Assembly: GCA_963739595.1 (NCBI GenBank)
Contig: CAVUBA010000013.1
Coordinates: 335 to 64,334, forward strand
DNA from: an uncultured Thermoleophilia bacterium
Lineage (GTDB): Bacteria; Actinomycetota; Thermoleophilia; UBA2241
DNA: 64,000 nt
Direction: 5' to 3'
Made by a program: the position numbers and the translations under genes. The notes under the pieces were generated by a model that saw nothing but the letters and a program-made list of their open reading frames with translations, was not told the DNA's origin and searched no databases. Positions 1,913 to 48,108 of this stretch are shown here, one piece after another. Numbering within the stretch: position 1 is the stretch's first letter; every line of letters begins with the position of its first letter.

Positions 1913-3154
1913 ATGAACCATCAGAAGTCGCGCGAGCTGTTCGAGCGCCTCGCCAAAGTCATGCCGGGCGCCAACACACGGACGGTCACGCACTACGACC
2001 CGTTCCCCGTAGGCATCGACCACGGCGCAGGGTGCCGCCTGTGGGACGTGGACGGCAACTCGTACATCGACCTGCTGAACAACTACACGCCACTGGTGCA
2101 CGGGCACGCCCACCCGCGGATCGTCGAGGCCATCACGCAGGCGGCGGCCCGAGGGATGGCATCTGCCGTACCTGCGCCGTTCGCCCTGCAAGGTGAGCTG
2201 GCGGAGCGACTGTGCGCACGCACGCCGTCCATCGACCTCGTGCGCTTCACCAACTCTGCGAGCGAGGCCGTGATGATGGCGGTGCGCGCCGCGCGCGCCT
2301 TCACCGGCAGGGACGAGATCATCATGCCGTCCAACGGCTATCACGGCAGCTGGGAACAGGTCTCACTGGCTGGCGCCGACGAAGCTCATCCGGACGGCGC
2401 GCAAGGCGTCGTTCCACCGGGCATCCCGGCAGTGCTCGCAGACCTCGTGCACTTCGTGCGCTTCAACGACGTCGGTCATCTCGAGGAGCTCGTGCGGGAG
2501 CACGGCTCGTCAACGGCCGCGATCCTGCTCGAGCCTGTCCTCGGCCACATCCTCGAGCCCGGCGACCCCGCATTCTTCCGCGCCGCCCTGCGGCTCGCTC
2601 ACGAGTCTGGCGCCTTGCTCATCCTGGACGAGACGATCACGTATCGCCTGCACGTCGGCGGGTGGCAGGCCGAACATGGTATCCAGGCCGACCTGACGAC
2701 GCTGGGCAAGACCATCGGCGGCGGGATGCCCGTCGGTGCGTTCGGCGGCCAGGAGCATGTGATGCGGATGTTCGATCCGCGCACGGCAGATCCGCTCTCC
2801 GCACATGGCACCATGAACGGGCACGCTCTGTGCATGGCTGCCGGGTGCGCCAGCCTCGACCTGCTCGACCAGCCGGCCATCACTCGCATCAATGCTCTTG
2901 GGGAGTCGCTGACCGCGCAGCTCGATGCAGCCGGCAGAGAGACCGGCATGGAGGTCCGCGTGCGCAGCTGTGGTTCGCTGCTGCAGGTGGCCGCGCCGGA
3001 TCCGCTGGCCTTCCACCGGGCCTGCCTCGAGGAAGGGCTCTACATCGCGCCGCGCGGCAGCATGAACGTATCGACACCCATGGACGACGAAGTGGTCGCG
3101 GAGATCGTGGCCGCGTGGAAGCGCGCACTGGAGCGGATCACCGTCGCCGTCTGA
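1913..3154 (+). CDS. class III (fold type I) aminotransferase, glutamate-1-semialdehyde 2,1-aminomutase-like
   Basis: ORF 1832..3154. The internal ATG at 1913 (MNHQKSRELFERLAKVMPGANTRTV) is preceded by CAGGGAG. Motifs: GNSYIDLLNNYT, SEAVMMAVRAARAFTGR, LILDETITYRL, LGKTIGGGMPVGAFGG. Confidence 0.85.
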   Translation: MNHQKSRELFERLAKVMPGANTRTVTHYDPFPVGIDHGAGCRLWDVDGNSYIDLLNNYTPLVHGHAHPRIVEAITQAAARGMASAVPAPFALQGELAERLCARTPSIDLVRFTNSASEAVMMAVRAARAFTGRDEIIMPSNGYHGSWEQVSLAGADEAHPDGAQGVVPPGIPAVLADLVHFVRFNDVGHLEELVREHGSSTAAILLEPVLGHILEPGDPAFFRAALRLAHESGALLILDETITYRLHVGGWQAEHGIQADLTTLGKTIGGGMPVGAFGGQEHVMRMFDPRTADPLSAHGTMNGHALCMAAGCASLDLLDQPAITRINALGESLTAQLDAAGRETGMEVRVRSCGSLLQVAAPDPLAFHRACLEEGLYIAPRGSMNVSTPMDDEVVAEIVAAWKRALERITVAV

Positions 3155-44462: not shown

Positions 44463-45611
44463 TTGGACAAGGACAAAGCCCTCGAGGCCGCCATGACACA
44501 GATAGACCGCCAGTTCGGCAAGGGCAGTGTCATGCGTCTTGGCGACCACCCCGTGAGCGACGACATGCAGTTCGTGCCGACCGGGTCGCTGGCCCTCGAC
44601 ATCGCCCTCGGCGTCGGCGGCATCCCGCGCGGCCGCATCATCGAGATCTTCGGGCCGGAGTCGTCGGGCAAGACGACCATGGTCTACCACCTCATCGCCC
44701 AGGCGCAGAAGCTCGGCGGCCAGGCGGCGTTCATCGACGCCGAGCACGCCATGGACCCCATCTACGCCAAGGCCATCGGCGTGGACGTCGACAATCTGCT
44801 GGTCTCGCAGCCGGACTACGGCGAGCAGGCCCTCGAGATCGCCGAGATGCTCGTGCGCAGCGGCGCCCTCGACATCGTCGCCATCGACTCCGTGGCCGCG
44901 CTCACGCCCAAGGCCGAGATCGAGGGCGAGATGGGCGACAGCTTCGTCGGCCTGCAGGCGCGGCTCATGAGCCAGGCGCTGCGCAAGCTGAACGGCAGCC
45001 TCAGCCGCTCGGGCACCATCTGCTGCTTCACGAACCAGCTGCGCGAGAAGATCGGCGTCATGTTCGGCAACCCGGAGGTCACCACCGGCGGCAAGGCGCT
45101 CAAGTTCTACGCCACCATCCGGCTCGACATCCGCCGCATCGAGACGCTCAAGGACGGCACGGAGGCCGTGGGCAACCGTGTCCGCGTCAAGGTCGTGAAG
45201 AACAAGGTCGCCCCGCCGTTCAAGCAGGCCGAGTTCGACATCACCTACGGCCTGGGCATCTCGCGCGAGGGCACGCTCCTCGACCTCGGCGTCTTCTACG
45301 ACGTCGTCGCCAAGAGCGGCGCGTTCTTCAGCTACAACGACGAGCGTCTCGGCCAGGGCAGGGCCAACGCCAAGGTGTTCCTCTCGGAGAACCCCGACAT
45401 CGCCGACGCCATCGAGGTCCAGATCCGCGCCAAGGCCGGCCTGCCGGCCAGCGCAGCGCTTGCCGAAGCGAGCGCAGCGTTCGCGGACGCCACGGCAAAG
45501 GCCGACGCCGCCAAGGCCGAAGCCGCAGCGCCCGAGCGGCGTCGATCCCGTCACCGGCGAGGTCCTGAAGGCGTAGTGAACGGTGTGCCTTCGGAACCCC
45601 GTTCGCTGTAG
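44463..45611 (+). CDS. recA: recombinase RecA (TTG start; extreme C-terminus possibly frame-shifted)
   Basis: ORF 44463..45611. AGGAG lies 7 nt upstream. Motifs: [47 protein letters not shown]. An alternative frame gives ..[13 protein letters not shown] ending at 45576. Confidence 0.93.
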
Positions 45612-45629: not shown

Positions 45630-46279
45630 GTGCCCGTCGTCACCGCCCTGCGCGCCACCCGCCGCGGGGGAGTGGCGCTGCACGTCGACGACGAATACGC
45701 CTGCGTCGTCAGCGAGTCCCTCGTCGCTCGCTGGCGCCTGTTCAAAGGGCGCGAGCTCTCCGAGGGGGACGTGGCCGAGATCCGCGCGGCGTCGTCCGGC
45801 GAGCGCGTCATGGGCGACGCCTACCGCCTGCTCGGGCACCGCGCCAGGAGCCGGGACGGAGCTGCGTCGCCGGCTCCTGGCCAAAGAACACGACGAGCAC
45901 GCCGTCGAGGCTGCCCTGGAGCGGCTCGCCGCGGACGGGTTCCTCGACGACGCCGCGTTCGCGCGCAGCTACGTCGCCGACAAGCGGCAGCTGGCGTCCT
46001 GGGGCGTCGAGCGCATCCGTCGCGGGCTGCGAGAGCTGGGCGTCGACTCGCTCGTGATCGACGAGGCTCTCGGCGGCCGGCAGCGGAGGCGGCGGGGAAG
46101 AGGGCGAAGAGCTCGACCGCGCCCTCGCCGTCCTGCGCCGCCGTGGCGCGCCGGAGCAACCGCTGGACGCGGCCCGCCGGCGCGCCTTCCAGGCCCTTCA
46201 GCGCCGCGGCTTCTCGTCGTCGGTCGCGTACGCCGCCGTGCGCCTGTGGATCGAAGGAGAGCCGCCCCGCGCGAATTGA
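45630..46279 (+). CDS. recX: recombination regulator RecX; 2 frame changes
   Basis: GTG 45630 (VTALRATRRGGVALHVDDEY..). Middle ELRRRLLAKEHDEHAVEAALERLAADGFLDDAAFARSYV in ORF 45583... Tail ..RRAFQALQRRGFSSSVAYAAVRLW.. in the third frame, ending at TGA 46277-46279. Frame changes near 45845 and 46085. Confidence 0.8.
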
Positions 46280-46305
46280 CTCCGCGCGGCGGCGTCACGT
46301 ACTAT
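46276..46305 (+). promoter_or_regulatory. strong sigma-70-type promoter TTGACT-18 nt-TACTAT
   Basis: -35 at 46276-46281, overlapping the recX stop. -10 at 46300-46305. Predicted TSS near 46312. Confidence 0.55.
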
Positions 46306-46311
46306 CCAAGC

Positions 46312-46545
46312 ACGCGACGTTTGCGCGTGCTTTGTGTATTCCACTTCTCGCTCTTGCATAGCGATACCGACGGCGCTACTGCGCCGATGAAGCTGAACCG
46401 ATCGACCAGGGGTCACCGATGAGAGCTTTGGGAGGTTTTGCGAACCTACATTCGTCCTGACCCCTGGACGCAGTCACAGCTGGATCACCGTATCGTCGTG
46501 CACGTGCGAGCGTGGCACAGGCCGGGCGCGTTGCCCGGCCTTTTT
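46312..46545 (+). ncRNA. unclassified structured RNA of about 235 nt (sRNA or rny 5' leader/attenuator)
   Basis: AT-richer gap with no credible ORF. Stems: 46308-16/46324-32 (9 bp), CGGCGC/GCGCCG 46371-76/46381-86, CCAGGGGUCA/UGACCCCUGG 46407-16/46458-67 (10 bp). It ends at an intrinsic terminator. Confidence 0.5.
46519..46545 (+). terminator. rho-independent terminator
   Basis: AGGCCGGGC (46519-27), loop GCGUU, GCCCGGCCU (46533-41), then a U-run to 46545. It lies 29 nt before the rny ATG. Confidence 0.65.
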
Positions 46546-46573
46546 CGTGCCGCGCGACCTGTGAAGGGACTGG

Positions 46574-48108
46574 ATGATGATTGCGGTCTATATCGTTGTT
46601 GGCCTGGTGGTCGGCATCGCGGTGGGGTACTTCATCCGCCGCAACCTCGCCTCGAGCAAGCTGGCGGGGGCCGAGCGCGAGGCCGAGAAGCTCCTCAAGG
46701 ACTCTCGCCGTGAGGCGGAGACCATCGTCAAGGAGGCCCGCCTCGAGGCGAAGGAAGAGGTCCACCGCGTCCGCAGCGAGGTAGAGAGCGAACTGGGGGG
46801 CCGGCGCGAGGAGCTCAACAAGGCGGAGCAGCGCATGCTGCAGCGCGAAGAGGCCATCGACGCTCGCGCCGCCGAGCAGGACCGCCGCGAGCAGTCCATC
46901 CGCGACCGCGACGCGAACAGCCAGCGCGATCTCCGACGAGACTGCAGAACGCGCACGCCGAGGCGATGATCCAGCTCGAGCGCATCTCCGGTCTCAGCGC
47001 CGCCCAGGCGAAGGACATCCTCCTCAAGCAGACGGAAGAGGAAGCCCGCCACGAGATGGCCAAGCTCGTCCGCCAGATCGACGAGGAGGCGCACCGGGAG
47101 GCCGACCGTCGCGCCCGCAACATCCTCTCGCTCAGCATCCAGCGCACCGCCGCCAATCACGTCGCCGAGACGACCGTCTCGGTCGTGAACCTGCCTTCAG
47201 ACGACATGAAGGGCCGGATCATCGGGCGCGAGGGCCGCAACATCCGCACGCTCGAGAACGTCACCGGCATCGACTTCATCATCGACGACACGCCGGAGGC
47301 CGTCGTGCTCTCCGGCTTCGACGGTGTGCGCCGCGAGACGGCGCGCCTCACGCTCACCAAGCTCATCACCGACGGGCGCATCCACCCGGCGCGCATCGAA
47401 GAGACGTACACGGCCGCCAAGGCCGAGGTCGAGGCCGCGATGGAAGAGGCCGGCGAGCAGGCCTGCTTCGACACCAACGTGCACGGTGTGGCGCCCGAGC
47501 TGGTCAAGGTCCTCGGGCGCCTCAAGTACCGCACCAGCTACGGCCAGAACGTCCTCAACCACTCCATCGAGGTCGCGCACCTCGCCGGCATCATGGCCGC
47601 CGAGCTCGGCGCCAACGTCAAGATCGCCAAACGCGCCGGCCTGCTGCACGACATCGGCAAGGCCATCGACCACGAGGTCGACGGCTCGCACGCCGTCATC
47701 TCGCAGCAGCTCTGCAAGAAGTACCGCGAGTCGCAGAGCGTGTGCCACGCCATCCAGGCGCACCACCAGGACGTGGAGCCGCAGACCGTGGAGGCCGTGC
47801 TCGTGCAGGCGGCCGACGCGATCAGCGCCGCCCGTCCCGGCGCCCGCCGCGAGTCGCTCGAGAACTACATCAAGCGGCTGGAGTCGCTGGAGCGCATCGC
47901 CGAGGCCAAGAAGGGCGTCGAGAAGTGCTTCGCCATGCAGGCGGGGCGCGAGGTGCGCGTGATGGTCAAGCCGGGCGAGATCGACGACGACGCGACCGTG
48001 CTGCTGGCGCACGAGATCGCGCGCGACATCGAGGACCAGCTCGACTACCCGGGCCAGATCCGGGTGACCGTCATCCGCGAGAGCCGCGCCGTCGACATCG
48101 CCAAGTAG
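46574..48108 (+). CDS. rny: ribonuclease Y; 1-2 frame changes near 46920-46945
   Basis: ORF 46574.. (N-terminal [23 protein letters not shown] and coiled coil) joins ORF 46966..48108 ([32 protein letters not shown]). Confidence 0.9.

Follow-up and report, generated by a model that had tools for sequence, protein, structure and literature searches.

A conserved structured RNA tied to the RNase Y gene rny in uncultured Thermoleophilia and its possible role as an attenuator-type leader

Here we describe a conserved structured RNA of about 235 nt, from promoter to terminator, that lies directly upstream of rny, the gene for RNase Y, in an uncultured Thermoleophilia bacterium. The stretch under study is 64,000 nt of contig CAVUBA010000013.1 (GenBank assembly GCA_963739595.1, positions 335 to 64,334 of the forward strand; hereafter the window), and the RNA occupies its recX-rny gap. 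The RNA is conserved, structured, tied to rny and absent from Rfam. We read it as the 5' leader of the rny mRNA, an attenuator-type element that sets or regulates the level of RNase Y with RNase-mediated feedback as the most likely signal, and assign this reading a probability of about one half. An earlier inspection of the letters without database searches (hereafter the sequence-only reading) had proposed at this position a structured RNA running from a promoter to a terminator, either a riboswitch or attenuator-type leader of rny or a stand-alone small RNA (sRNA), and had added the idea of a leader that senses RNase Y activity, in parallel to the autoregulation of the rne 5' UTR. The comparative analysis confirms a real conserved structured RNA that is linked to rny and ends in a terminator that transcription has to pass, and weakens the riboswitch option.

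In the bacteria studied, RNase Y initiates the decay of much mRNA, and the level of the enzyme itself has to be kept within narrow bounds. To our knowledge, the control of that level is understood in outline only, and only for Bacillus subtilis.

A clade-restricted RNA family directly upstream of rny

Loci were gathered by RNase Y-based scans of genomes and metagenomes, by two DNA-pattern scans and by a protein search yielding over 100 RNase Y clusters with identities of 75-96%, of which 11 contigs contributed DNA. A covariance model (R1), made from 11 close sequences and our own structure, was rebuilt twice (R2 and R3). Twenty-two family members score 53-228 bits over the full model R2, and in every one the element lies directly upstream of rny. 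The nearest genome locus (L001), from a metagenome-assembled genome of an uncultured Thermoleophilia bacterium, has an RNase Y 94% identical and a gap 96% identical to those of the window; the RNase Y proteins of the members are about 78-96% identical to that of L001. Two members (L178 and L222) have a gene other than recX upstream, and their leader is still attached to rny. At neither locus was recX found in the 8 kb examined, so the gene order recA-recX-rny is not kept there. The leader is present once in the window, and no copy unlinked to rny was found among 303 loci or in the window.

The boundary of the family was judged against 100 unrelated loci that share with it only the hairpin GCCGGGC-NN-GTTGCCCGGC, which score 22-39 bits and up to 40 bits with R3. 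Scores of 25-38 bits are not evidence of membership, because terminator-only loci reach 22-40 bits, and the homology of the L002, L003-type, L298 and L303 leaders, which score in just that range, was rejected. A sequence hidden Markov model (HMM) stripped of the terminator finds only the close clade of the window plus L084 and L288 among 292 loci, as well as five of six intermediate loci added later. Pairwise local (Smith-Waterman) alignment of the window leader with other rny leaders gives z below 2. In sister lineages, namely L002, L083, L298 and L303 (RNase Y about 79-81% identical) and the L003 clade (about 76%), the leaders keep the same layout, and the body is undetectable.

Two wider proposals were also discarded. 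Motifs picked by eye as common to the window and to Gaiellales, L003-type and L086-type leaders (YUGCAU, GAACCGAUCGAC and GGRGG) are not recovered by the HMM and stay below a z of 2, and a class-wide structured rny leader lacks thermodynamic support, with z near 0 in several other lineages. Judged from these sequence comparisons, the family is real but narrow and restricted to one clade.

The control hairpin deserves mention in its own right. In the form GCCGGGC-N1-2-GTTGCCCGGC followed by a T-run, it serves as terminator in over 120 unrelated genomes (L161-L280), including Proteobacteria and Bacteroidota, and by itself it earns covariance-model scores of 22-40 bits (E of about 1e-6). A common GC-rich terminator hairpin alone can thus produce covariance-model matches that look significant.

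Compensatory changes support a three-way domain closed by a long-range helix

The RNA from 46306 to 46573 folds to a predicted -129.6 kcal/mol compared with -100.0 ± 5.0 in shuffled sequences (z = -5.97; none of 200 shuffles is as stable). The body, from which the 5' hairpin and the terminator were left out (46333-46518), gives z = -4.65, and three coding controls give 0 to -1. From 5' to 3' the fold consists of a hairpin (P0), a short single-stranded U/A-rich linker, a three-way domain that the long-range helix P1 of about 22 bp closes, and the terminator (Table 1).

Covariation was scored on 21 distinct sequences aligned to the model, over 62 pairs, with 500 shuffles and with controls in which the partner strand was slid. 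Paired cells make up 87.6% of the alignment (80.1 ± 0.5% in shuffles, none of 500 reaching the value; 35-40% in slid controls), 31 of the 62 pairs carry a compensatory change (18.0 ± 2.6, again 0 of 500; 10-18), and the number of cells with such a change is 88 (26.1 ± 4.4, 0 of 500; 17-35). The alignment was fitted to the model and therefore favours the structure; the slid-partner control retains the relatedness of the sequences yet stays far below. In an initial 12-sequence alignment the compensatory changes had come from six sequences, and 15 of 25 from L084, which is why intermediate sequences were added. The stems are thus conserved and covarying in relatives, among the 22 members and in P1 to P4, as the sequence-only reading had made a condition of its proposal.

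The best-supported helices by compensatory pairs are P1 (8), P2 (3), P3 (all five) and P4/P5 (8). P1 is 92.5% paired over its 18 modelled pairs in the 21 sequences, and its CCAC/GUGG extension is predicted only. The six pairs of P2 are 98.4% paired. One P3 pair appears as AU in 6 sequences, GU in 5, GC in 4, UA in 2 and CG in 1. The P4/P5 helix is 80.8% paired over 16 pairs, with a GGGG/CCCC core in P4 that never varies, and a small intermediate stem and P6 are more weakly supported (57-79% paired). Many pairs are G-U and the reverse strand scores 11-22 bits, which together fix the strand of the RNA. Selection on the leader is visible in its mean identity of 0.76, against 0.61 at fourfold-degenerate sites of rny, with the leader value the higher in 36 of 36 pairs.

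Most of the local stems named in the sequence-only reading are in the DNA as it described them: AAGCACGCG/CGCGTGCTT at 46308-32, CGGCGC-UACU-GCGCCG at 46371-86 and the AGGTT/AACCT sub-stem (46433-37 and 46443-47). Its 10-bp stem CCAGGGGTCA/TGACCCCTGG is present as well, at 46406-15 and 46458-67, one base off the start at 46407 that it gave. The bases of its CACG/CGTG stem exist (46501-04 and 46511-14), but a local hairpin there was rejected because the consensus assigns them to the 3' strand of P1. P1 itself, P3 and the helix that flanks the terminator were missing from its list.

Within the apical region lies a Shine-Dalgarno (SD)-like GGAGGU, near-invariant in the 22-member alignment, after which the members share no conserved start codon; an open reading frame (ORF) beginning at TTG 46438 is only 2 nt from it, is not conserved and has no Pfam match. 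The motif raises the idea of a ribosome decoy or stabiliser, in which GGAGGU would bind 30S subunits without translation, block 5'-to-3' decay and tie the stability of rny mRNA to ribosome availability. That the true SD of rny, GAAGGGA, is weaker fits this idea, as does the block that ribosomes at the rny SD pose to RNase J1 in B. subtilis (PMC10303841). On the other hand, half of GGAGGU is paired in P6 in most members, some 120 nt separate the motif from the 5' end, with the terminator downstream of it, and runs like GGAGG are no rarity in purine-rich loops. The motif would work like the STAB-SD element of cryIIIA, and we think this explanation very improbable.

A conserved promoter, a terminator and a helix that only read-through RNA can form

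The promoter TTGACT-18-TACTAT is the sole sigma-70-like match that the promoter scan finds between 44000 and 49000, where shuffles give 0.1, and it agrees with the near-consensus promoter claimed beforehand at 46276-46305. TTGAC is present in 21 of 21 members checked, and TA(C/G)NAT is retained at a constant distance in each; the intervening 17-18 nt are variable in sequence. Transcription would start at about 46311-46313. The stop codon of recX (TGA, 46277-79) sits within the -35 hexamer.

A 5' hairpin is predicted at the P0 position in 21 of 21 members. Since a weak U-rich run (UUUGUGU) directly follows it, P0 may also act as a weak terminator for recA-recX transcripts. The family retains YUGUG and, after it, a U/A/C-rich stretch, usually directly behind this hairpin (21 members checked). 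This linker is a candidate endonuclease entry site, a role suggested by the preferences of RNase Y (PMC4608709, PMC10303841).

At the 3' end, the 9-bp GC stem plus U5 that had been called at 46519-45 is recovered by the terminator scan, with a stem of 9-10 bp at 46519-41 and T5 at 46542-45; six of nine stem pairs are invariant in 21 sequences, and the loop is variable. The rny SD follows as expected, and the ATG lies 28 nt after the T-run, where 29 nt had first been given. No second promoter was found by the scan between the terminator and the rny start, where 28 nt would be too short for one, in accordance with the sequence-only reading. Every rny transcript from the leader promoter must therefore pass the terminator.

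The sequence between the terminator and rny contributes to a further helix. The segments GCGUGGCAC and GUGCCGCGC pair across the terminator and would lengthen its hairpin to about 19 bp just 5' of the rny SD, in a helix that only read-through RNA can form. Across 20 sequences, pairing in this helix (46510-18/46547-55) amounts to 91.7%, which 1 of 500 shuffles attains (slid controls 15-51%), and three of its pairs carry compensatory changes. Its retention indicates that the read-through RNA matters. A neighbouring candidate, CACAGG (46516-21) with CCUGUG (46558-63), did no better than shuffles (66 of 500) and was dropped.

These observations bear on whether the element is instead a stand-alone sRNA of about 235 nt, trans-acting or protein-binding, with rny expressed by escape from its terminator, as ygfA is after 6S RNA in E. 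coli. A conserved promoter that belongs to the element, a strong conserved terminator, the compact closed fold between a 5' hairpin and a 3' terminator hairpin that is typical of stable sRNAs, and the lack of a regulatory alternative structure among those sought are all as an sRNA would have them. A role in cis is favoured over this by the spacing of 28-35 nt between element and rny start in all 22 members, by the conserved post-terminator sequence and by the read-through helix. An sRNA would also not be expected to stay with rny when the upstream gene changes, to turn over its body quickly between sister lineages, or to lack any second or unlinked copy (303 loci and the window). The sRNA explanation is a serious rival, though we consider it unlikely.

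Table 1 Features of the recX-rny region, in window coordinates
Feature	Position	Strand	Sequence or pairing	Support
recA	44463-45576			Pfam
recX	about 45630-46279			Pfam
-35 hexamer	46276-46281	+	TTGACT	promoter scan
-10 hexamer	46300-46305	+	TACTAT, spacer 18	promoter scan
P0, GC-rich 5'-terminal hairpin	46308-46332	+	AAGCACGCG / CGCGUGCUU	folding prediction
U/A-rich single-stranded linker	46333-46340	+	UGUGUAUU, YUGUGY motif	unpaired in predicted folds
P1, 5' strand (long-range closing helix)	46341-46367	+	CCAC extension, CUCGC, C, UGCAU, GCG, AUAC; pairs with 46490-46515	minimum free energy (MFE) folds
P2 hairpin	46371-46386	+	CGGCGC-UACU-GCGCCG	comparison
P3, 5' strand	46391-46395	+	AGCUG; pairs with 46477-46481	
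P4, enclosing P5 and P6	46406-46467	+	CCAGGGGUCA (46406-15) with UGACCCCUGG (46458-67)	
P5, apical, within P4	46418-23 with 46451-56	+		
SD-like motif, apical region	46431-46436	+	GGAGGU	near-invariant among members
P6, apical, within P4	46433-38 with 46442-47	+		
P3, 3' strand	46477-46481	+	CAGCU	comparison
P1, 3' strand	46490-46515	+	GUAUCGU, GUGCA, G, GCGAG, GUGG	MFE folds and comparison
Intrinsic terminator	46519-46545	+	AGGCCGGGC-GCGUU-GCCCGGCCU, then U5	terminator scan
3' strand of the terminator-flanking helix	46547-46555	+	GUGCCGCGC, complementary to GCGUGGCAC (46510-18)	MFE folds and comparison
rny ribosome-binding site	46563-69	+	GAAGGGA	
rny start codon	46574-76	+	ATG, 28 nt after the T-run	
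rny (RNase Y)	46574-48108			Pfam
miaB-like gene	from 48155			Pfam

Relation to described RNA classes and coding potential

At gathering thresholds Rfam 15 has no match in the whole window or in the loci of 11 relatives, in line with the earlier failure to place the RNA in a described family. With E values up to 10 over 46150-46700 there are sub-threshold matches only, mostly to the terminator hairpin (for example CC3513 at 21 bits against a threshold of 40, and SorX at 19 against 46.6). ARAGORN reports no tRNA or tmRNA, and full-text literature searches found no paper on an rny-associated RNA motif in Thermoleophilia. The T-box model RF00230 gives no match, neither in the window at gathering nor in the region at E up to 10; no antiterminator is found, and the gene that follows is rny.

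A 6S-like RNA, or another described class missed by the models, would fit the size (170-235 nt), the rod-like shape P1-P3-P4-P5-P6 with a side hairpin at the central junction, and the co-transcribed gene that follows. The consensus is a three-way junction and lacks the large two-sided central bubble, the distribution is narrow, neither 6S (gathering thresholds for the window, E up to 10 for the region) nor SRP, tmRNA, RNase P or another Rfam class matches, and ARAGORN finds nothing; such an identity is very hard to credit.

The leader does not appear to be coding. No reading frame is conserved and stop patterns differ between members, the leaders of close relatives differ by indels of 1, 2 and 4 nt, and the three overlapping ORFs within the leader have no Pfam match. 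A leader peptide and an antisense ORF were both rejected on these grounds, which bears out the earlier statement that the gap holds no credible ORF.

A proposed attenuator-type leader of rny

The layout is that of an attenuator leader: an own promoter, then a GC-rich hairpin with a U-run before the ATG, and no promoter between. It is equally that of a ribonuclease leader, a structured 5' UTR (untranslated region) directly 5' of rny and co-inherited with it in 22 members. As a model, transcription would begin at the leader promoter, the folded domain would form, and RNA polymerase would have to pass the strong terminator to reach rny, so that the leader could set or regulate the amount of RNase Y made. 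RNase-mediated feedback is the most likely signal: RNase Y, perhaps together with RNase J or RNase III, might cleave the long helices or the exposed U/A-rich linker and thereby alter the fate of the read-through rny mRNA. The internal GGAGGU may in addition recruit 30S subunits and so protect the RNA downstream of it from 5' exonuclease.

The model draws on what is established for the enzyme elsewhere. B. subtilis RNase Y autoregulates by cleaving its own 160-nt 5' UTR, mainly in the first 50 nt, which are A/U-rich with one stem-loop, and RNase J1 then degrades the cleaved RNA until it is stopped by ribosomes at the rny SD (PMC10303841). In Staphylococcus aureus, RNase Y cleaves its own mRNA and favours sites after G (PMC4608709). 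P0 together with the UGUGUAUU linker resembles the B. subtilis 5' UTR arrangement, here within a genome of 70% GC.

Several considerations weigh against this reading. Feedback by RNase Y on the leader is argued from gene context and the B. subtilis analogy only, and the U/A-rich linker is short. Cleavage sites of RNase Y are not reliably predictable from sequence (PMC11780869), for which reason cleavage of the leader by RNase Y is put forward conditionally. The start site, the 3' end near 46545 and the fraction of read-through are all deduced from the DNA, and an own promoter with a strong terminator on 235 nt is also typical of a stand-alone sRNA. Folds in which the 3' half of the terminator was blocked give the 5' half no consistent partner, and the members thus reveal no conserved antiterminator. 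No conserved pairing partner for the rny SD was found among the members either; a candidate anti-SD pairing of the 5' segment UCCAC(U)UC was abandoned because the partner changes from member to member. In view of these two negatives the terminator may be a fixed leaky barrier instead of a regulated one.

The same negatives, with the fast turnover of the body in sister lineages, argue against a classic metabolite riboswitch. Its core would be conserved over a wide phylogenetic distance, and here the HMM and the covariance models find one clade only; the expression platform would overlap P1, and here P1 ends at 46515, 3 nt 5' of the terminator stem, which starts at 46519. An orphan riboswitch or protein-binding attenuator, in which the P1-P4 domain binds a small molecule or a protein (perhaps RNase Y) and alters termination at 46519-45, would account for a multi-helix, P1-closed domain directly 5' of the terminator and for the invariant segments (the P4 GGGG/CCCC core, GGAGGU and the base of P1), and it has a precedent in the E. 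coli rne 5' UTR, which acts through binding of RNase E to a stem-loop (discussed in PMC10303841). Set against it are the lack of any conserved antiterminator or terminator-competing pairing, P1 stopping before the terminator stem without overlap, and a distribution over one narrow clade; relatives with an RNase Y just as similar have no detectable counterpart, which sets the domain apart from metabolite aptamers. Structure in the apical part is poorly conserved, and even with E values up to 10 Rfam offers no matching riboswitch. We regard this form as unlikely.

A broader proposal, which we likewise hold to be doubtful, is a sensor that couples RNase Y synthesis to the state of RNA decay or translation by an undescribed route. 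In an RNase Y- or 30S-responsive attenuator, cleavage or binding of P1-P4, or capture of 30S subunits at GGAGGU, would decide terminator passage or mRNA survival; as an orphan riboswitch, the leader would place a global RNase under the control of an unknown ligand.

A structured leader ahead of a ribonuclease gene is not surprising in itself. The leader offers a second system, defined in structure, for testing RNase Y feedback, outside Firmicutes and in an uncultured actinobacterial class. The family adds an RNA missing from the current Rfam library, and the sister lineages indicate that rny leaders can evolve fast yet keep their layout.

The locus and other rny leaders

The recX-rny gap is 294 nt long, and its GC content of 0.57-0.62 lies below that of its flanks (0.70-0.79), as noted before. 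Compared with L001 (96% identical), the window has small indels at 45857, 46047-46087, 46345, 46398, 46928 and 46942. They frameshift recX twice and rny once (net +2 nt near 46928-46942), and the leader has one additional T at 46345; L001 and further relatives have both genes intact. The frameshifting indels point to assembly errors or recent pseudogenisation in the window.

Other rny leaders were encountered among the loci. In 47 Gaiellales-type loci (such as L008, L021 and L034, with rny starting near 2929-3001) a different, widespread leader lies within the 330 nt upstream. It has a -10 box TAGGAT or TACGAT and a conserved 5' motif CAUYCGACRUUUUGCCUGCA..UUUUCCGAA. At 33 of the 47 loci it contains an internal GGAGG, and at 32 of the 47 MFE folding joins CCUGCA to a UGCAGG or UGYGGG that lies some 145 nt further 3'. 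It has no terminator, no Rfam match and no detectable homology to the window leader. A third type (L003:2664-2944 with L253, L259, L230, L267, L286, L287, L290 and L292) starts from its own promoter, TTGACAG-N17-TACAAT, and combines a 5' hairpin and a long closing helix with the terminator hairpin of the window leader; it contains long invariant stretches (GUGGCAYCUGAAGGCCAUGCACUCCGG..CCGGCCUGUCGAACGAGCGACGUAGGGG), and only three of its pairs show a compensatory change. Clostridia-type loci (L025, L029, L059, L030, L138, L142, L150, L153, L049 and L047) have a terminator-like hairpin with a U-run 30-95 nt upstream of rny. By strict criteria, such a hairpin upstream of rny is present in 30 of 141 loci overall.

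Comparison with known leaders

A close parallel is the B. subtilis rny 5' UTR. Both are long untranslated leaders before the same gene, with a 5'-proximal A/U-rich single strand and a stem-loop, and with strong structure beside the ribosome-binding site (PMC10303841). In B. subtilis the enzyme feeds back on its own leader, whereas feedback on the Thermoleophilia leader is proposed by analogy. The two also differ in that the B. subtilis leader is 160 nt long and has no described intrinsic terminator or conserved multi-helix domain (PMC10303841), and no sequence or model similarity between them was detected.

With the rne 5' UTR (RF00040), the pnp and rnc leaders and the Actino-pnp motif, the element shares its place as a structured 5' UTR of a gene for an RNA-decay enzyme, and the characterised ribonuclease-gene leaders autoregulate through recognition or cleavage of hairpins. 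These leaders belong to other enzymes, and none of their Rfam models matches in the window or the loci of relatives at gathering thresholds, or in the region at E up to 10. They are not known to contain a terminator, unlike the window leader.

STAB-SD 5' stabilisers, such as that of cryIIIA, have an SD-like GGAGGU within a 5' UTR and no start codon, as does the window leader; here, however, GGAGGU lies deep in a folded domain, partly paired and away from the 5' end. Attenuators and terminator-type riboswitch leaders present the same order of promoter, P1-closed domain, intrinsic terminator, ribosome-binding site and gene. The window leader departs from them in its clade-restricted, fast-evolving domain and in having neither an antiterminator that we could find nor a conserved leader peptide.

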